64,000 bases of DNA from the IMG/VR virus record IMGVR_UViG_3300019889_000008, positions 9,827 through 73,826 of that record; one strand, 5' to 3'. The position numbers and the translations under genes are program-made. Of this stretch, positions 52,388 to 64,000 are shown in pieces (the stretch's first letter is position 1; the number at the start of each line of letters is the position of its first letter). The notes under the pieces were generated by a model. That model had not been told where the DNA came from and did no database searches. It saw only the letters and a program-made list of their open reading frames with translations. Source of the stretch: a virus.

Positions 52388-53479
52388 ATGCTCCGCCTGC
52401 TCGATCTCTTCGCCGGCATCGGCGGCATGAGCCTGGGCCTCCAGCGATCGGGCCATTTCCGCCCGGTGGCGTTCTGCGAGATCGATCCGTTCTGCCAGCA
52501 CGTCCTCCGCAAGCATTGGCCCGAGGTTCCGATCTATGGCGACGTCCGAACCCTCAACCGAGCCCGCCTCGCCGCCGATGGAATTGCCGTTGACGCCATC
52601 TGCGGCGGCTTCCCCTGCCAGGACATCTCGGCCGCGGGGCGAGGCGCGGGGCTTCATGGCTCCCGTTCCGTTCTCTGGCGTGAGTTCGCTCGACTGCTTG
52701 GCGATCTACGACCCCGATACGCGATCGTGGAAAACGTCGATGCTCTCGCTTTTCGGGGTCTCGGAATCGTTCTTGGAGACTTGGCCGCGCTCGGGTTCGA
52801 TGCGGTCTGGCATTGCATACCGGCTGCCGCCGTTGGTGCCCGACACCTGCGCGAGCGGGTCTGGATTGTGGCCTACACCGATCGCTCGGGATTGGAAGAG
52901 CAGTTCTACCGCCACGCGCCAGAACTCGCGGCCGCTGTCGGAACACATACCTGGGGCTCTGAACCCCCTGTGGGTCGAATGGCTTATGGGATTTCCCCTT
53001 TACTGGTCGGAGGTGGCGTAGATGAAGCGGCCGTGGCGCATCCGGAAGGCGGCGCAGCGCGCCGTCTCGCTGGCCGGAAAGCAATGCAGCGAGTGCAACG
53101 GGACGCACCGGCTCCAGAGACATCATCCGGATTATTCGAAGCCGAGCGAGATCGTCATCCTCTGCCAGCGGTGCCACGTCGCGGCCGACATAGCAGCAGG
53201 CTTCCGGAAGGTGAAGCAGCCGAAGCTCTGCAAGGTGTGCGGAACCGAGTTCCTGCCGAACCACAGCCGGAAGCACAGCACGTGCAGCCGGGAGTGCCTC
53301 TCGGAGATCGGCCGCCAGAATTCGTTGAAGCGGTGGCGCCGGGTGGCCGAAAACCAAAGGCCCGCAAGCGCAAGCTGATGAAGAACCGCGTCAACCGCGT
53401 TCGCGCGCTCGGCAATTCCGCGGTCCCACAAATCCCGGAAATCATTGGCCGTCTGATCGGCAACCTGGAGGCAGCGTGA
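52388..53479 (+). CDS. C5-cytosine DNA methyltransferase, alpha chain
   Basis: LDLFAGIGG, GGFPCQD, ENV, RERVW; motif X RVRALGNSAVPQ. Confidence 0.9.
   Translation: MLRLLDLFAGIGGMSLGLQRSGHFRPVAFCEIDPFCQHVLRKHWPEVPIYGDVRTLNRARLAADGIAVDAICGGFPCQDISAAGRGAGLHGSRSVLWREFARLLGDLRPRYAIVENVDALAFRGLGIVLGDLAALGFDAVWHCIPAAAVGARHLRERVWIVAYTDRSGLEEQFYRHAPELAAAVGTHTWGSEPPVGRMAYGISPLLVGGGVDEAAVAHPEGGAARRLAGRKAMQRVQRDAPAPETSSGLFEAERDRHPLPAVPRRGRHSSRLPEGEAAEALQGVRNRVPAEPQPEAQHVQPGVPLGDRPPEFVEAVAPGGRKPKARKRKLMKNRVNRVRALGNSAVPQIPEIIGRLIGNLEAA
52536..53021 (+). CDS. MTase beta chain overprinted in an alternative frame
   Basis: TWPRSGSMRSG, LWPTP.ARDWK, LNPLWVEWLMGFP (motif IX-like). Confidence 0.75.
   Translation: MATSEPSTEPASPPMELPLTPSAAASPARTSRPRGEARGFMAPVPFSGVSSLDCLAIYDPDTRSWKTSMLSLFGVSESFLETWPRSGSMRSGIAYRLPPLVPDTCASGSGLWPTPIARDWKSSSTATRQNSRPLSEHIPGALNPLWVEWLMGFPLYWSEVA
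53022..53378 (+). CDS. HNH/zinc-finger protein nested inside the MTase alpha gene
   Basis: CSEC..HHPDYSKP..LCQRCH..CKVCG..CSREC; GGAGGT RBS. Confidence 0.75.
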   Translation: MKRPWRIRKAAQRAVSLAGKQCSECNGTHRLQRHHPDYSKPSEIVILCQRCHVAADIAAGFRKVKQPKLCKVCGTEFLPNHSRKHSTCSRECLSEIGRQNSLKRWRRVAENQRPASAS

Positions 53480-54156
53480 TCCACTATCACGGGACGCCGA
53501 TCTCCCCGGTGATCGAACGGCAGAAGATGGCCGGCAAGCACTTCTGCGTCTCGTTCGAGCGGCCGGACGATGCCGAATGGTGCCTCGCCAACGGGCAGTC
53601 GGTGCTGTGGGACAATGGGGCCTATAGCGCCTTCCGCCACGGCAAGCCGCTGGACACCGGCAAGCTTTACGCATGGCTTGAGCGGCGTCTGGCGCAGCCC
53701 CATTGGGCCATCATCCCAGACCGGATCGGCGGCGACACCGACGAGCAGCGGGCCATGGTTTCGGCCTGGCCGTTCCCGAGGACCCTCGGAGCGCCGGTCT
53801 GGCACATGGCGCTGGCGATCGACTATTTGCTCGAACTGGCCGACGAGTGGCCGAGGATCTGCTTCGGCAGTTCCGCTCGATACTGGCAGATCGGCAGCCC
53901 GATTTGGGAGCGCCGCTGCGACGAGGCGTTCAACGCCCTGGCCAAGCGGCATCCGCGGTTGCCGTGGGTCCACATGCTGCGCGGCCTCGCCCTGGCCGGC
54001 GACCGGTGGCCCTTCGCCTCGGTCGACAGCGCCAACGTCGGGCGAAACTTCAAGACCCTCAACACGTGTCCCGAGCGCATGGCCCGCCGGCTCGACGCCA
54101 TCCAGTGCCCGATCATCTGGACCCCGCGGATGGTGCAGCAGGATCTCGTCGCATGA
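53476..54156 (+). CDS. TGT-fold DpdA-like 7-deazaguanine transglycosylase candidate
   Basis: DNGAYS, PDRIGG, PVWH, GSS, HMLRG and SVDS in TGT-barrel order. Confidence 0.6.
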   Translation: MIHYHGTPISPVIERQKMAGKHFCVSFERPDDAEWCLANGQSVLWDNGAYSAFRHGKPLDTGKLYAWLERRLAQPHWAIIPDRIGGDTDEQRAMVSAWPFPRTLGAPVWHMALAIDYLLELADEWPRICFGSSARYWQIGSPIWERRCDEAFNALAKRHPRLPWVHMLRGLALAGDRWPFASVDSANVGRNFKTLNTCPERMARRLDAIQCPIIWTPRMVQQDLVA

Positions 54157-54662
54157 TGCTCCTGGCCCTCTACGTCCTCACGGTCCCGGCCGCCAATTGG
54201 CTGATCGGCAACGTCGGTCGCTGCGTGCCGGATGGCCCGTGCCTGATCCCGGTCGGGCTGGGCCTGGAGGCACCGAGCGGCGTGCTCATGGTCGGCCTGG
54301 CGCTCGTCCTCCGGGACGCCATTCAGCGCCGATACGGCGTCGCCCGCTCGCTCGCCGCGGTCCTGGTGGGATGCCTTGCCTCCCTGCTGCTGGCGCCGCA
54401 CGAACTGGTCATCGCCTCGGGCGCCGCCTTCCTGTTCTCCGAGTTGGCCGACCTTGCCGTCTACACGCCGCTCCAGCGGCGCCGGCTCGTCCTGGCCGTG
54501 CTCGCCTCCGGTGTCGTCGGCGCCGCCGTAGACAGCGCGCTCTTCCTCTGGATCGCGTTCGGGTCGTTGGACTTCTTCGCCGGGCAGATGCTCGGGAAGG
54601 TCTACATGACCGTCGCCGCGATCCCTCTCGTGCTCCTGACCAGAAAGAGGGCTCTCGCATGA
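54153..54662 (+). CDS. VUT/YhhQ-family preQ0/preQ1 transporter
   Basis: AANW..LVLRDAIQ..ASGAAFLFSELADLAVY..VDSALFLWIAFG..GK. Confidence 0.85.
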   Translation: MMLLALYVLTVPAANWLIGNVGRCVPDGPCLIPVGLGLEAPSGVLMVGLALVLRDAIQRRYGVARSLAAVLVGCLASLLLAPHELVIASGAAFLFSELADLAVYTPLQRRRLVLAVLASGVVGAAVDSALFLWIAFGSLDFFAGQMLGKVYMTVAAIPLVLLTRKRALA

Positions 54663-58538: not shown

Positions 58539-59087
58539 ATGAGCGGGACCAAGACCAAGGCCAGGACGCAGCCGCTGCTCGAAACATCCGAGCGGGCCCA
58601 GCACGCCGCTGCGATCATCGACCGAAGCATCGGGACGGCCATCGGCGCCCCGCGTGGCCGGCTCATTCAGAACCCGCTTGACCGGCTGTTCGTCCGCAAC
58701 ACGATCACGCAGCGGATGTATTCCGCCGGGGCCAAGCTGAAGGAGGATTTCGAGATCGGGCTTCTCGGCGCCCGTGACACGGAGGGCAACTTCCATCTCG
58801 GGATCAAGGGCCAGTCGAATCACGCATGGGTTCCGGACGTCCGACTGGACGCCATCACCCGGTTCAAGGGCGCCATGAAAGCGCTGGGGGCGCCGCTGGG
58901 CACCGTCCTGGTGGCCTTCTGCTGCTACGACCGGGACGTGGTCAAGATTGCCGCACAGCAGGGCCGCAACCGGGACAAGGTGATGGGCATCGTCGAGATC
59001 GGGCTCGAAACCCTGGCCGATCACTACGGCATGCTCGGCAACGACCGGCAACGCAAGATGCAGGGCTATAGAGTCGAGGAGGATTGA
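58539..59087 (+). CDS. Putative late-gene activator/antiterminator (DUF6456-like)
   Basis: PLDRL..ITQRMYSAG..GLETLADHYG; last gene of replication operon. Confidence 0.55.
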   Translation: MSGTKTKARTQPLLETSERAQHAAAIIDRSIGTAIGAPRGRLIQNPLDRLFVRNTITQRMYSAGAKLKEDFEIGLLGARDTEGNFHLGIKGQSNHAWVPDVRLDAITRFKGAMKALGAPLGTVLVAFCCYDRDVVKIAAQQGRNRDKVMGIVEIGLETLADHYGMLGNDRQRKMQGYRVEED

Positions 59088-59332
59088 GGATGGTGGGGTT
59101 CGCGCCGACACCAATGCCGCCGCCGGGCTACTACATCGCCGAGGAACTCAAGGCCCGCGGCATCACCGTAGAGGACTTCGCTCGCCATCTCCGCATAGAC
59201 GGATGGCACGCGGAGCGGCTGCTGGACGGGGGTCTGCGGATCGATGAGCCATTCGCCGCTGCGATCGGGCAGCTGTTCGAGGTGTCGCCCGATCTGTTCC
59301 TCAACCTCCAGCGGGCATACGACGATCAATAG
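59084..59332 (+). CDS. HigA-like antitoxin HTH protein (orphan)
   Basis: PPGYYIAEELKARGIT..FA..SPDLFLNLQRAYD. Confidence 0.8.
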   Translation: MRMVGFAPTPMPPPGYYIAEELKARGITVEDFARHLRIDGWHAERLLDGGLRIDEPFAAAIGQLFEVSPDLFLNLQRAYDDQ

Positions 59333-59415: not shown

Positions 59416-59447
59416 GACGCCCGGCCTGAGCCGGGCGTTCCTGTTTT
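59416..59447 (+). terminator. Terminator hairpin between convergent genes
   Basis: GACGCCCGGC CTGA GCCGGGCGTT then CCTGTTTT. Confidence 0.65.
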
Positions 59448-59755: not shown

Positions 59756-60229
59756 TCAGGGCTGATCACTGATCAGAAGCTCGAACTGGTCTGGACCGAT
59801 CTTCATCCGGAGCACCTCGCCCGCGGTCCTGTCGATCCAATGCTGGATGTCGTAGGCGTCGATCTTCTCGACCCCGTCGTCGCCGCCGAAGGACTCGTTC
59901 TTGGCGCCCCACACTGTATCGGGGTCCATGGTTTCGGGATCGCACTCCTTGGCGTAGGCGACCCGCTGCATCCGTTCGCTGGCCATCAGCGCCGGCCGCC
60001 CGTTGCTGACGAGGTAGACGCCGTCGTCGCCCACCAGATGCAGGCCGGGAGTGATCAGGGCCGGGTCCACGTCCTCGGGCAGCACGGCGCCCGCGTCGAA
60101 GTCTGGCGCGTTGCCGTCCTTGCGGCACTCGGGATCGCACATCTCTTCGAACGTCGGGGCGTGCTCGGGCGCGGTGAAGGCGTGATCGAGAAGCTCTTTC
60201 ACCGCGGCTTTGTTGAATGTGAGGATCAT
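59756..60229 (-). CDS. DUF3085-like protein
   Basis: PGLHLVGDDGVYLVSNG..VAYAKECDP..FGGDDGVE. Confidence 0.75.
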   Translation of the reverse strand: MILTFNKAAVKELLDHAFTAPEHAPTFEEMCDPECRKDGNAPDFDAGAVLPEDVDPALITPGLHLVGDDGVYLVSNGRPALMASERMQRVAYAKECDPETMDPDTVWGAKNESFGGDDGVEKIDAYDIQHWIDRTAGEVLRMKIGPDQFELLISDQP

Positions 60230-60245
60230 CTGGTCTCTCCGGGTT

Positions 60246-60398
60246 GTCGTCGATTCACTAGGGGGTCGTCGATCTACTTGGGGGTTTTGCCGGCCGCCGG
60301 CCGATTTCGGCGGCCCTCGGGCCGAGCCCGGCCGCCCGGTCGTCGATCGACTGGGGGTGGTCGTCGATCTACCAGGGGGTCGTCGACCGACCGGGGGG
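60246..60398 (+). repeat. Five ~19-bp repeats GTCGTCGAYYNACYNGGGG
   Basis: Copies start at 60246, 60265, 60339, 60360 and 60379. Confidence 0.8.
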
Positions 60399-61163
60399 TT
60401 CGGGCGATCCGGCCGATTTCGGTGTCTCCCATCGGAGACACCCCCTGTCACCGAATGGAGACACCCCCCAACCGCGACTCGGTCGCAACGGTGGCCGGCC
60501 CGCCAAAATGCGAAGCGGTCGCAATGGACCCCAGGCTCGGCGATCTCGGGCCGCCCACAAGGGCCGCCCGTGAAACCCGGCCGATCGGTACTACCAGCCC
60601 GGCTTGGCGATCTCTGGCCGGCCGAAAACCGTCCAAGCGGACTGCCCTGGCCCGCTAGGGCGAGCCCCGCCGGGGGCCAAGCTGGGGCCAAGCTGGGCGA
60701 GCCCGGCTGTAGGGCCGGCCCCACCAGCGCCACCAGGGCCGCCCCACCAGGGCCGGGCCCGGCTGGCCCCCACCAGCGCCGGCCCGGCTGTAGAGCGGCC
60801 CCACCATGGCGGGCCATGGCAACGCGGGGCGATTTGGGCCAGGGCCGGCCCGCACAGGGGGCCGCCAAGGGCCCTTGGCCGAGTGCCGTGGTAGGGTGGC
60901 CTAGGCGAAACCGACTGCCCTTGTACAGGGCCCCTACGCAACCGGGCCCCCGGCCCCCGGCCCAGGCCGGCCCCGTTGGGCCCGCCTGGACGAGGCTTGG
61001 CCCGCCGGCTGTAGGGCCGCGGGGCTGGGCTTGGGTCGGGCGTAGGCTGGGGCTGGGCCCCATGGCGACTCCTGTGGCGCCGGGGCCGGCTGGCCCTGGC
61101 ACTGGCAAAGCCCCGCGCGGCGGTTGCCGGCGGGGCTGTAGGGGCTGGGCTGGTAGGGCTGGC

Positions 61164-61770
61164 CTAGCGGGGCTTGGGCGGGGCGTTTTTCGCCCCCCAG
61201 GCGGCCCGGTTTTCGCCCTCGGCTCTTGCCATGGCTTCCGAATAGTAATGGCCAAGGTCTTGGTACTGTAGCGCAACACCATAGGCGTGCCTGGAAAGCT
61301 CAATAGCCAAGTCATACTGGAAAGAAACCCTGGCTTCCGTGGTTTTCACCAGTAGCCACTCAACAATATCCTCTGGTGGCAACTTGCCGATTTCTACATT
61401 GCGGCGGCGCGGGTTCATAGGTTTGGCTCCGGGTTGTGGGGGCCCTGGCCGGCCCCTGGCACTGCCTCGGCCCCGCGCGGCGAAAGCCGGCGGGGCTGGG
61501 CTGGTGTAGCGGCGGGGCCGCCTAGCAGGTTTCGCCGCTGGCAAGTAGGGCGTAGAAAGCGCGCTGCTGGGCTTCCTGGGCCGCGCTCTTGGCTTCATGG
61601 GCCGCCACCAGCGCCGGGCCCCAGTCGGCGCGCTGGTAACTGTAGCGCCGGGCTGTAGCGGCCCGCCGGCCAAACTGAGCCACTAGGGCCGCCGTGAAAG
61701 CGTTGTCGGTTTCCTGGGCCGCCAAGTTGGCATCGTAGTAGGTTTGGCCCAAGGGGGTACGGGTGGCCAT
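61164..61770 (-). CDS. Two small hypothetical genes (61164-61418, 61522-61770)
   Basis: Each preceded by AACCCGGAG and a GGCAGTGC element. Confidence 0.6.
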
Positions 61771-61891
61771 GGTGGACTCCGGGTTAGGGGGCCGCGTTGC
61801 GGGCCCTTGCACTGCCTTAGCCCCGTTGGCCGGGGCCAAGCGGGGCTGGTGGCAAGTAAGGGGCCAGCCGAAGCCGGCCCCCGCCAAGTAA

Positions 61892-62560
61892 CTAGCCAAC
61901 GATTCGGTACACCATTTCACCGTCGACCTTTTCGGCTTCTACGGCCAGCCCAAGCTTCACCTTGATGGCCCCAGCAATGGCGCCGCGGGCCGTGTGGCGT
62001 TGCCAGCCGAAAGCCTCCATGGCCTGGGTCAGGGTACAGCCCTCGGGCCGCCGCAACATGGCCACATAGCGCGAAAGCTTGGTGTCCCGCGGCGCCTTGG
62101 GCTCGGCCGGCTTCTTTTCCGCCTTGGGCTTGCGGGGTGCCTTGGCCGGCTTCGCCCCGCGCTTGGCGCGCTCCTTCAAGAGTCCGGCGGTAAGCGCATC
62201 CTTGCCCTTGCCACGGGCCGCCTTGGCAGCCTTGCCGGCCGGCTTGGCCCGCAACTTCACCGGGGGCTCGTCCACCAGATCCGAAAGCGGAGTCCCTGAG
62301 TCGGTGGCCGGGCCGCCGGCCGGCTGGCCCGCCGAGTTCGTAGCCTCGGCGAAAGCGTAGGGCACCGGCTCGGTGGTGGCGCTAGGGGATGGCCCAGGCT
62401 GCGCGGGTTCGAAGGCGTGCGCTGTATGGATCGATGTAGCGCCGGCCGGGGCCGCCGTGGGGAAAGTGAATCCCCCCTCGGTGGCGTACACGGTGGCCGG
62501 GTCCACGTTGGCAGCCTTGGCTGCGCGGATCGCGTTGGACTTGGTGCTGTAGGTTTTCAC
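61892..62560 (-). CDS. DUF3489-domain protein
   Basis: TKL..VAMLRRPEGCT..GWQRHTARGAIAG..KLGL..VYRI. Confidence 0.85.
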   Translation of the reverse strand: MKTYSTKSNAIRAAKAANVDPATVYATEGGFTFPTAAPAGATSIHTAHAFEPAQPGPSPSATTEPVPYAFAEATNSAGQPAGGPATDSGTPLSDLVDEPPVKLRAKPAGKAAKAARGKGKDALTAGLLKERAKRGAKPAKAPRKPKAEKKPAEPKAPRDTKLSRYVAMLRRPEGCTLTQAMEAFGWQRHTARGAIAGAIKVKLGLAVEAEKVDGEMVYRIVG

Positions 62561-62661
62561 GGTGGTTCTCCGGGTTTGCGGGCCCCTGGATCGGGGCCCT
62601 TGCACTGCCCTAAGCCCAGCCGCTTTCGCGGGCTGGGCTGGGCTGTAGGGGCTGGGCCGGC

Positions 62662-62868
62662 CTAGTCCTCGGCGCCGATGGCCAACTCGGCGACCCGCTC
62701 CAGTAGGGTCGCGATCCGGCCCGCCTCGCCAACGTGGCCCCAATTCACGTCGTCCGGGCTCACGCCGAAATGTTCGTTGCTGGCCCGCTGGACCACCGCC
62801 AGTAAGGCGTCGATCCGGTTCTTGTGGGCAACAAAGTTGGCCAGGGCTGACTCGTTGGTGGTGGCCAT
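62662..62868 (-). CDS. Small conserved phage protein
   Basis: ALANF..IDALL..HFGVSPDDVNWGHVG. Confidence 0.75.
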   Translation of the reverse strand: MATTNESALANFVAHKNRIDALLAVVQRASNEHFGVSPDDVNWGHVGEAGRIATLLERVAELAIGAED

Positions 62869-63041
62869 GGGGCTTCTCCGGGTTGCGGGCCCTTGGGGCC
62901 CTGGTGGCGTTTCCGCCGGGTTCGTTTCAACACCAGCAATATGGCTCGTTTCCGGGCCCCGTGGGAAGTCGGAAACCGCGGAAAACCGCGGAGTTCGATT
63001 GCGTAGATCCCCCCCTTTCTGATAATCATCGGGTCACACAT

Positions 63042-63377
63042 ATGAGCCCTGGCCAGCCCCGCCGGGCCCGCTACGCCAAGGCGCCGTGGGACTCCCTATA
63101 CAAGACCGCGCGGTGGCGCGCGCTACGGCGGGCCCAGCTTGCGCGGGAACCCTGTTGCGCCATGTGTACAGCCGTGGGGCTGGTACGGGCCGCCACCGTG
63201 GCCGACCACATACAGCCCCACAAGGGCAACCCGGCCCTTTTCTACGACCCGGCCAACCTACAGACCCTTTGCAAGCCCCACCACGACTCGGCCAAGCAAC
63301 GGTGGGAAAGGCTGGGGCTGGTGGAAACCGGGGCCAATGGTTGGCCCGTGGTGGCCCCGCCGGGCCCCCGCCGCTAG
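63042..63377 (+). CDS. HNH endonuclease (terminase-associated, HK97 gp74-like)
   Basis: W..LR..QL.REPCC.MC..ATVADHIQPHKG..NLQTLCKPHHDS.K. Confidence 0.9.
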   Translation: MSPGQPRRARYAKAPWDSLYKTARWRALRRAQLAREPCCAMCTAVGLVRAATVADHIQPHKGNPALFYDPANLQTLCKPHHDSAKQRWERLGLVETGANGWPVVAPPGPRR

Positions 63378-63580
63378 GGCCAGCCCCGCTCCGGCCGGCC
63401 AGGGCCCAGCCCGGCCCCACGCCATGGGCTCGACCCACGGGGGCCAGCTGGCCCAGCTTGGCCCCAGCTAGCGGCGGGCCAGGGCCACCAGCCCCAGCCG
63501 GCCAGCCCCGCGGGCCCAGCGCCACCAGGGCCACGCCGAGCCCCGGCTGGCCCCACCCTTTCGACCTGGTCGCGGCCCGG

Positions 63581-63930
63581 CGATCCTACACGGCGGCGAC
63601 GATGAACCCGGCCAAGCCATACCACCAGCCCGGCTTGGCGATCCGACCCGGTATCCACTCGGCGCCACGGTGAAACCGGCCAAGCGATCCAACTCGGCCG
63701 GCGCGGCGATCCGAAACGATCCACACGGCAGGCGCGATGAACTCGGCCGGCCGATCCTACACGGCGGCGACGACCATCGATCCACGATCCACCCGCCGCC
63801 GACGATGAACTCGGTCGATCCACCAGGGGCCGATGGAAGATCGAGGCGGCCGGGCTCGATCGAGGCGGGGGTCGGCGCCTTTGGATCCAAGGTCTGGACC
63901 GTGAACATCGACTCGATTCTTGCTCGGATC
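63581..63930 (+). repeat. GATC-dense degenerate repeat block near the presumed genome end
   Basis: 13 GATC in about 350 bp; 22-bp repeat CGATCCTACACGGCGGCGACGA at 63581 and 63752. Confidence 0.75.
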
Positions 63931-64000
63931 GGCCGGCGGACCGCTCGATTCTTGCGGGAAGGGGGGGGTCCCTGCGACTGCTTCTTAATACGGCCGGGGG

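Follow-up and report, generated by a model that had tools for sequence, protein, structure and literature searches.

The virus record IMGVR_UViG_3300019889_000008, a 73,826-bp genome of 66% GC from a soil metagenome, contains near its right end a 3-kb island in which the dinucleotide step GA/TC is strongly avoided. The genome is that of a siphovirus-like phage and encodes a tape-measure protein, tail fibres, and a primase-helicase. Positions given here are those of the window, the final 64 kb of the record, unless genome coordinates are named. In the island (60613-63581), AT, CG, and words with GA/TC in them, chiefly GAT/ATC and GAC/GTC and consequently GATC and TCGA, occur 2- to 6-fold less often than elsewhere in the genome. 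The depletion acts at the level of DNA, reaches synonymous sites at the cost of rare codons, is maintained among relatives, and adjoins the physical end of the virion DNA. Of the causes considered, the likeliest, put forward tentatively, would be DNA-level purifying selection acting on a segment that would enter the cell and be expressed first, exerted through a putative factor that reads a GA/TC-containing word.

Composition and codon usage of the island

By dinucleotide signature the island is the one outlier of the 73.8-kb genome (delta* 0.41, z 6.5), while the best window elsewhere reaches only 0.15; a composition scan of this kind had been proposed in a first-pass annotation of the same DNA. 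Rho for GA/TC is 0.57 in the island and 1.29 in the rest of the genome. AT (0.84 against 1.53) and CG (0.81 against 1.15) are also low, while TA (1.10 against 0.41), AA/TT (1.70 against 1.01), and CC/GG (1.16 against 0.90) are raised. In the non-coding parts of the island rho for GA is 0.48, compared with 1.22 for DNA outside open reading frames (ORFs) in the rest of the genome, so that the scarcity of GA and TC reported by the first-pass annotation for coding and non-coding DNA alike is borne out. Among trinucleotides the depletion is greatest for GAT/ATC (0.17-0.27 of bulk), followed by GAC/GTC, then GAG/CTC, and is least for GAA/TTC. The island includes GA/TC-free runs of 92-120 bp, while the mean spacing of GA/TC elsewhere is 6.9 bp. 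The abundance of CTAG, GGCC, and GGCTGTAG noted earlier is likewise correct: CTAG occurs at 3.4/kb in the island and 0.54/kb elsewhere, GGCC at 38.7/kb and 14.6/kb, and all six copies of GGCTGTAG in the genome are on the plus strand and inside the island.

The depleted unit is the step GA/TC, rather than GATC or TCGA themselves. Each of these tetranucleotides is present seven times in the island against 7.9 expected from base composition, and neither is therefore depleted in that sense. The contrast with the rest of the genome arises because GATC is there enriched 3.7-fold over the base-composition expectation (11.7/kb) and TCGA 2.7-fold (8.5/kb), while the island, with 2.4/kb of each, is without that enrichment; CGATCG is absent from the island and has a density of 1.5/kb elsewhere. 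The first-pass description of a GATC/TCGA-poor island thus holds relative to the rest of the genome and fails relative to base composition. The GATC-free stretches that it gave, 60613-62277 and 63010-63581, are exact, with GATC at 60609 and then 62278, and at 63006 and then 63582.

For the coding part, expected counts were obtained with amino acids fixed and codons drawn as 45 bulk ORFs use them. On the coding strand TC is found 38 times against 80.5 expected (z -7.5), GA 83 times against 108 (z -4.8), and CG 176 times against 225, while TT is found 61 times against 30 (z +7.4); the fall in GA is accompanied by a rise in AA, and the fall in CG by a rise in TG and CA. The codon CTC stands at 0.38 in bulk genes but at 0.03 in the island, GTC at 0.56 but at 0.10, and the island genes use the rare codons CTA, CTT, and ATA. 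The stop codon is TAG in all five island genes, which accounts also for the excess of CTAG, while 26 of the 45 bulk genes end in TGA. Gene by gene, observed over expected TC ranges from 0.21 in the HNH endonuclease gene to 0.68 in gene C, compared with 0.75-1.24 for the 45 bulk ORFs. The HNH gene is the most strongly recoded of the island genes, with 3 TC against 14 expected, and in three genomes it has 2-3 against 14-17 expected. Genes B-E are not aliens of low GC content at third codon positions (GC3), since their GC3 is 0.78-0.87. Protein composition moves mildly, with Asp, Ser, and Ile down and Ala up. GA/TC is removed wherever function allows.

Several of these shifts are those expected from a local mutational bias, such as deamination of cytosines that follow T, in DNA frequently exposed as single strands near the end or under heavy transcription: TC down with TT up, GA down with AA up, CG down with TG and CA up, NTC replaced by NTT in four of four codon boxes, and Ser TCN, which cannot be changed by one silent step, left untouched. 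Other shifts, however, are transversions or run in reverse (GTC to GTG, GCG to GCC, ACG to ACC, and GAT, TAT, and CAT towards C-ending codons), the GC content of the island is above rather than below that of the rest, the borders are sharp with no gradient from the end, and the outermost 420 bp are unaffected. Given the contrary codon shifts, the raised GC, and the sharp borders, the island is not a plain C-to-T mutational footprint, and a bias of this kind is quite improbable as its cause.

Physical end of the genome and relatives of the island

The end of the record is the physical (cos) end of the virion DNA. Judged from assembled contigs rather than reads, two independent Logan contigs terminate exactly at 64000, a contig of the distant relative L182, from another sample, terminates at the homologous base, and the relatives L001 and L076 continue across this point, with about 11-12 additional nucleotides there. 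These nucleotides (CGGCGCGNGGC...) are absent between the last and first bases of the record (window 63990-64000, genome 1-30) and present in the read-through relatives (L001:7130-7170). Their absence would fit a 3'-overhang cos site from which the overhang was removed in end repair or library preparation. Measured from the right cos end, the island spans 0.4-3.4 kb, and the HNH gene ends 623 bp before that end. The far left of the genome encodes a ParB_N + N6_N4 methyltransferase, a Terminase_4 small subunit (TerS), and the large terminase (TerL); TerS and TerL are at genome 2303-4367, that is, at the opposite end from the island. By analogy with lambda and HK97, the right end would then be packaged last and ejected first. 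Of the two things that the first-pass annotation had wanted mapped, the termini are settled on the right by the contig ends, and the polarity of injection would follow from this analogy. Cumulative GC skew was uninformative, and scans of contigs with gene C and with TerL as queries returned no relative.

In nine more distant relatives from IMG/VR (L207, L209, L213, L224, L234, L243, L244, L256, and L260) the contig starts 15-250 nucleotides upstream of the ParB-methyltransferase gene. That many distant contigs begin just upstream of this gene suggests that the same cos position is shared across a wide group of phages.

The same island occupies the same place in L001 (68 kb), L076 (72.8 kb), and the more distant L182, with 68-87% nucleotide identity in island and flanks alike. 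The gene content turns over, gene C and the HNH gene forming a core while the presence of A, B, D, and four further small genes varies between relatives; the non-coding tracts, intergenic modules, and repeat arrays persist while the genes change. At sites that differ between relatives, GA and TC make up 5.9% of dinucleotides in the island compared with 12.4-13.3% in the flanks, and the avoidance persists across 14-20% sequence divergence. Since changed sites show the same avoidance, it is maintained, and the island is at its own compositional equilibrium rather than being a decaying import.

Among about 280 loci fetched from IMG/VR and metagenomes (74 HNH loci, loci of genes B, C, and D, 80 ParB-methyltransferase loci, and 119 metagenome loci), the signature is confined to this lineage. 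The composition is normal at the 72 other HNH loci, and the homologues of gene D in L078, L079, and L280 are in normally composed DNA. In L182, gene D and X2 lie to the left of the box array, outside the island, and have normal or near-normal composition. The order HNH-cos-ParB/methyltransferase is present in seven distant relatives, again with normal or near-normal composition, the HNH gene being 0.1-0.7 kb upstream of the ParB-methyltransferase gene. The gene families thus do not carry the signature with them. Scans of viral and metagenome contigs for the module pattern recovered only the lineage plus chance single matches, and neither the island by megablast nor a 534-amino-acid ORF by tblastn had a match among 50,697 phage records.

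Horizontal transfer is the standard reading of a compositional island. The island could be a foreign mosaic module, acquired through recombination at the repeat arrays before the four lineage members split, still bearing the signature of its donor and refreshed since by exchange between islands. Such an origin is consistent with the sharp edges, which coincide with a conserved direct repeat, the atypical codon usage, and the variable gene content. Of the features by which genomic islands are recognized, atypical composition, sharp borders, and flanking direct repeats are all present, while absence from relatives, a donor, and drift are not found. No donor is present among the fetched loci, where only the lineage shows the signature; the island is in four of four lineage members, the HNH gene keeps the ancestral HNH-cos-ParB/methyltransferase synteny, the same gene families are elsewhere in normally composed DNA, changed sites have not drifted to genome composition over the 14-20% divergence, and there is no integrase or transposase. 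An old import is therefore unlikely. Against recent import, which the first-pass annotation had named as something that might explain the depletion, stand the lack of a donor among these loci, the presence in all four members, and the lack of drift.

Genes, modules, and repeat arrays

Table 1. Features of the island and its surroundings (window coordinates; aa, amino acids)
Feature	Position	Strand	Remarks
Left repeat array	60240..60612	.	Normal composition; families D1, D4, D5; boxes kept in L001, L076, L182
Left copy of exact 20-bp direct repeat ACCAGCCCGGCTTGGCGATC	60593..60612	+	Core motif C[CG]GG[CG]N2-3GG[CT]GATC
Left GGCC-rich non-coding tract	60613..61163	.	76-79% GC; oriented CCACCAG(G/C) and GGCTGTAG words
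Gene A	61167..61418	-	84 aa; no family; this genome only; 57% GC; TC 5 vs 14 expected, z -3.5
Intergenic module, B to A	61419..61524	-	Hairpin H1, box GGCAGTGCMA, hairpin H2, AACCCGGAG, start codon
Gene B	61525..61770	-	82 aa; no family; TC 3 vs 10 expected; L001 homologue 65% identity
Intergenic module, C to B	61771..61894	-	By alignment and folding
Gene C	61895..62560	-	222 aa; C-terminal DUF3489, Pfam PF11994, E 2.1e-22
Intergenic module, D to C	62561..62664	-	By alignment and folding
Gene D	62665..62868	-	68 aa; phrog_14596 (function unknown); least depleted island gene
Divergent control region	62869..63041	.	Between D (leftward) and HNH (rightward); conserved in L001
HNH endonuclease gene, terminase-associated kind	63042..63377	+	Pfam PF01844, 22.8 bits (cut-off 21.4); phrog_2323, E 2e-32
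Right GGCC-rich non-coding tract	63378..63581	.	Word set as in left tract; 106-bp GA/TC-free run
Right GATC-rich repeat array	63582..63930	.	Units GATCC(W)AC...GATGAAC(Y)CGGCC; families D1, D8, D9
Physical right end of genome (cos end)	63931..64000	.	Independent Logan contigs end at 64000

Non-coding, repeat-derived DNA makes up 42% of the island (Table 1). The left tract has 16 GA/TC in 551 bp, with GA/TC-free runs of 94 and 76 bp inside it, and a third such run of 120 bp (61070-61190) begins in the tract and extends into gene A. A vestigial module with a Shine-Dalgarno (SD) sequence and ATG is present at about 61054-61170. The tract is not coding, since its indels relative to L001 and L076 are not multiples of three; no Rfam family matches it, and neither Rfam nor a tRNA scan finds anything in the island. 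The divergent control region is not depleted (21 GA/TC in 170 bp at 62872-63041, a near-normal density), and a sigma-70 scan of this region and the modules gave no consensus match. Gene C, a core gene of the island in all four lineage members, has homologues in L001 (61%), L076 (55%), and L182; its DUF3489 domain is one that we take to be of winged-helix type. The HNH protein has the HNH motif, and its gene adjoins cos and the terminase genes in conserved synteny, as in terminase-associated endonucleases. The arrangement is that of HK97-like HNH-terminase modules, with a small HNH gene just upstream of cos and Terminase_4 TerS and TerL across it; however, the HNH gene here is recoded to avoid TC and its homologues in other phages are not. 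Two further HNH relatives, P0001 (75%) and P0002 (71%), are on short contigs.

The small leftward genes are preceded by a module of about 100 nucleotides that runs from a stop codon through H1, GGCAGTGCMA, H2, and AACCCGGAG to the start codon, with four copies in 61054-62668. Twelve copies from three genomes align (alignment A2). In the relatives the modules are at L001:3460-5243, L076:5885-7530, and L182:1019-5017, and those of L182 also flank cassettes outside the GA/TC-poor island. With each copy folded separately, H1 folds at -22 to -30 kcal/mol and has three stem versions that are mutually compensating, while RNAalifold, applied to a MAFFT alignment, missed the hairpins. What GA/TC remains in the modules is nearly confined to the SD sequence and the loops, the single exception being CCTCGG at 61467. 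The module hairpins are without a U-tract. An enrichment of GANTC, the CcrM site, was set aside as a signal on reading the module sequences, several copies being the module SD GGAGTC. A sigma-54 promoter in the GGCCCTKGCACTGCC box was also rejected by eye, because the box points antisense and, in several copies, the -12 GC does not fall in register.

The module may be a unit of RNA processing or stabilization, or a recombination joint comparable to the promoter-early stem-loops (PeSLs) of T4-type phages. In those phages, small dispensable ORFs sit between repeated regulatory stem-loops within a hyperplastic region (Arbiol et al. 2010, PMC2839356). The likeness is in the swappable, module-flanked small genes whose content is shuffled between relatives; unlike PeSLs, the modules of the island have no sigma-70 promoter or U-tract, and consist of two hairpins, a box, and an SD sequence.

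The large share of repeat-derived DNA and the clear duplication of the modules raise the question of whether the signature has any function. The tracts and modules could have been copied from a small set of GC-rich hairpin words in which GA/TC is absent by chance, and the genes could be short, accessory, and weakly codon-adapted. This by-product explanation is already strained: the GC3 of genes B-E does not indicate weak codon adaptation, the HNH gene, a conserved packaging gene, is the most depleted in three genomes, and in L182 the same modules flank cassettes of near-normal composition. It is accordingly regarded as very improbable.

In the GGCC-rich tracts the octamer CCACCAGG (60721-60776 and 63485-63528) is one-sided, with three copies on the plus strand and one on the minus strand. 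The corresponding counts are +12/-0 in L001 (3100-3230 and 6400-6680) and +10/-0 in the reverse island of L076, while L182 has none. Its complement, CCTGGTGG, is one base from the Escherichia coli Chi site GCTGGTGG, and four copies of CCACCAGC are exact Chi complements. Chi-like protection of the right end by CCACCAG(C/G) was nevertheless rejected because the words face the wrong way for an enzyme entering there.

Both edges of the island are marked by repeats. The left array has five 20-nucleotide boxes GGTCGTCGATCYACYRGGGG at 60245-60397, an inverted repeat GGTGTCTCC/GGAGACACC at 60421-60465, and a 51-nucleotide unit at 60565-60615 that is a member of the family composing the right array; the right array, in turn, carries one box of the left-array type at 63814. 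The 20-bp repeat ACCAGCCCGGCTTGGCGATC, which the first-pass annotation had placed at both edges, is present exactly twice in the window, at 60593 and 63624 (63624-63643). It is part of the 51-nucleotide unit of the right array, one copy of which marks the left edge of the island. The core motif of the repeat is confined to two places, the left edge and the right array, in this window as in L001 and L076, and all its copies have the direct orientation. The idea that the island is flanked by GATC-rich blocks is correct on the right, where the 13 GATC counted earlier in 63581-63930 compare with 4.1 expected at genome density (P = 3.5e-4), and not on the left, where 8 against 4.8 expected is not significant (P = 0.12). 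Nothing supports the suggestion that the arrays are decoys; they consist of conserved repeat boxes, with one motif common to both edges in three genomes.

To the left of the arrays, a gene for a HigA-like helix-turn-helix protein (59084-59332) closes a rightward operon. A leftward DUF3085 gene (59759-60229) adjoins the island and converges with the operon that ends in the HigA-like gene at a hairpin at about 59416-59439.

Possible causes of the avoidance and known parallels

Selection on first-entering DNA would work as follows. The stretch is the cos-proximal right end of a cos-packaging siphovirus, with hypervariable leftward cassettes of small genes and a terminase-associated HNH gene. If the lambda and HK97 analogy holds, this segment would enter the cell and be expressed before any phage-made protection exists, and the purge would leave little for a factor that recognizes a short word with GA/TC in it to act on; the DpdA of the phage itself, which would insert 7-deazaguanine, is one candidate for that factor. 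The cassette operon reads away from the physical end, that is, in the presumed direction of entry. The leading end of T7 may be a further parallel for such a first-entering role.

Phage T5, on whose first-step-transfer DNA Davison and Brunel reportedly worked, has a region that is similar in several respects. Its pre-early region consists of variable small genes between strongly conserved repeat regions, and the untranslated parts have direct repeats, inverted repeats, and DnaA-box-like words (bioRxiv 10.1101/866236). Both regions are a few kb at one end of a siphovirus genome, the end that enters first in T5 and, by analogy, would do so here; in both, small and poorly conserved genes turn over between conserved untranslated repeat regions, and in both there is a lack of sites that are harmless elsewhere in the genome (here GATC, TCGA, and CGATCG, frequent elsewhere, although palindromes overall are enriched). 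Unlike the T5 region, the island is in a cos genome without a terminal repeat, and it avoids a two-letter step and the words that contain it rather than the site of one enzyme. Pfam and PHROG scans of genes A-D, in which the T5 proteins themselves were not used as queries, found none of the A1, A2, and dmp families and returned only DUF3489 and PHROGs of unknown function. The left array, with its boxes and inverted repeats, resembles the T5 injection-stop region in form only.

Several observations weigh against selection on first-entering DNA. The depletion is partial, Ser TCN codons not being replaced (ratio 0.92) and GAA being hardly depleted, and it is uneven, six of the seven island GATC lying within 62278-63006 and the stretch 62280-63040 being near normal. 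The outermost 420 bp, which would enter still earlier, carry 13 GATC. Palindromes are denser inside the island than outside it (4-bp palindromes at 102 per kb against 84 and 6-bp palindromes at 32 against 19, with GGCC, GGGCCC, and GCCGGC enriched 3- to 9-fold), so that general avoidance of restriction fails as an explanation. The first-pass proposal of a first-injected leader free of restriction sites is therefore retained as to position, in that the island adjoins the physical end and by analogy would enter first, while freedom from sites is contradicted by the palindromes and the 13 outermost GATC. Entry polarity and early expression are themselves drawn from analogy, a listing of public runs naming no RNA run with this DNA, and the existence of a reading factor is likewise inferred. 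As to the host, the sample is a soil metagenome, and the one hint is a 58% HNH relative in Phenylobacterium.

The factor could instead be a reader of modified DNA. The first-pass annotation had suggested a zone kept free of the modification motif of the phage itself, so that early promoters or terminase could work, and in this form the island would be kept poor in the target of the phage's DNA-modifying enzymes so that readers of injected modified DNA (host RNA polymerase on the first genes, or terminase and HNH near cos) are unhindered. Three DNA-modifying functions are encoded: a DpdA-like transglycosylase with a YhhQ-type transporter, a C5 methyltransferase, and the ParB-fused N6/N4 methyltransferase. 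The enzyme concerned could be either methyltransferase, or else the DpdA-type transglycosylase together with its YhhQ importer. The DpdA-like protein (53476-54153, 226 amino acids) matches phrog_887 (E 4.5e-35), and its gene overlaps the start of that for a Vut_1/YhhQ protein (54153-54659, E 8e-14); the genome thus has both a transglycosylase and a source of base, as expected of a phage DpdA system. PF01702 (TGT) had no match in the genome, and the DpdA homologue was found through PHROGs only; among phage proteins, those closest to it (52-42% identity) come from phages of Rhizobium, Caulobacter, and cyanobacteria.

The iggy DpdA has GA as its only motif, and GA is also among the motifs of CAjan (PMC10484667, PMC7544227). 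A proven target of two phage DpdAs is thus the most depleted step of the island, and TC, whose template-strand complement is GA, is the step most depleted on the coding strand. The likeness to iggy and CAjan extends to the DpdA homologue and the avoided step, while the DpdA here is short and distant and was found with a transporter only, no search having been aimed at folE or queCDE. We know of no unmodified zone reported for iggy or CAjan. The nearest characterized DpdA, that of MED16 (35% identity), replaces only 0.13% of G, and MED16 DNA can still be cut at sites that contain GA (PMC8306585). A salvage-only pathway also argues for sparse marks. The Rhizobium phages RHph_X2_30 and RHph_N3_2, which have the closest pair of DpdA and DUF165, are without a GA-poor window (minimum rho 0.91 and 0.98). 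In addition, GAA is barely depleted, AT and CG are depleted too, and the GA-rich arrays adjoining cos are not avoided. A zone free of the phage's own modification motif is therefore suggested by the DpdA/YhhQ pair and the GA motif, and made rather unlikely by the sparse marks of MED16, the Rhizobium phages without an island, and GAA.

A broader version is that something in the infected cell reads the GA/TC step and first-entering phage DNA must escape it, whether the reader is a host factor or responds to the phage's own 7-deazaguanine mark; this is a doubtful proposal as it stands. The mark would in that case hinder host RNA polymerase on injected DNA, the island may be an entry leader, and the repeat arrays may be a checkpoint for further entry or expression. 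The anti-defence leading regions of conjugative plasmids would be comparable in being first-entering DNA with small establishment genes, and the gene that adjoins the island belongs to DUF3085, the family most enriched on broad-host-range conjugative plasmids (PMC12826799). Plasmid DNA, unlike that of the phage, enters single-stranded. To our knowledge no compositional purge has been described for plasmid leading regions.

Avoidance of sites by phages is known for restriction or protospacer-adjacent motifs of 4 to 8 bp and is genome-wide, while here a two-letter step is avoided in one 3-kb block only, beside the physical end of the genome and at the cost of rare codons. The block is also a compact and swappable store of small, presumably early genes, including DUF3489, the neighbouring DUF3085, and several orphans, and it is in blocks of this sort that anti-defence functions are usually concealed. 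Should the host or the phage have a reader of GA/TC, the locus offers a direct assay for it; if that reader responds to the phage's own DpdA mark, the island would be the first example in which the genes that a phage has read first are exempt from the hypermodification that it makes.

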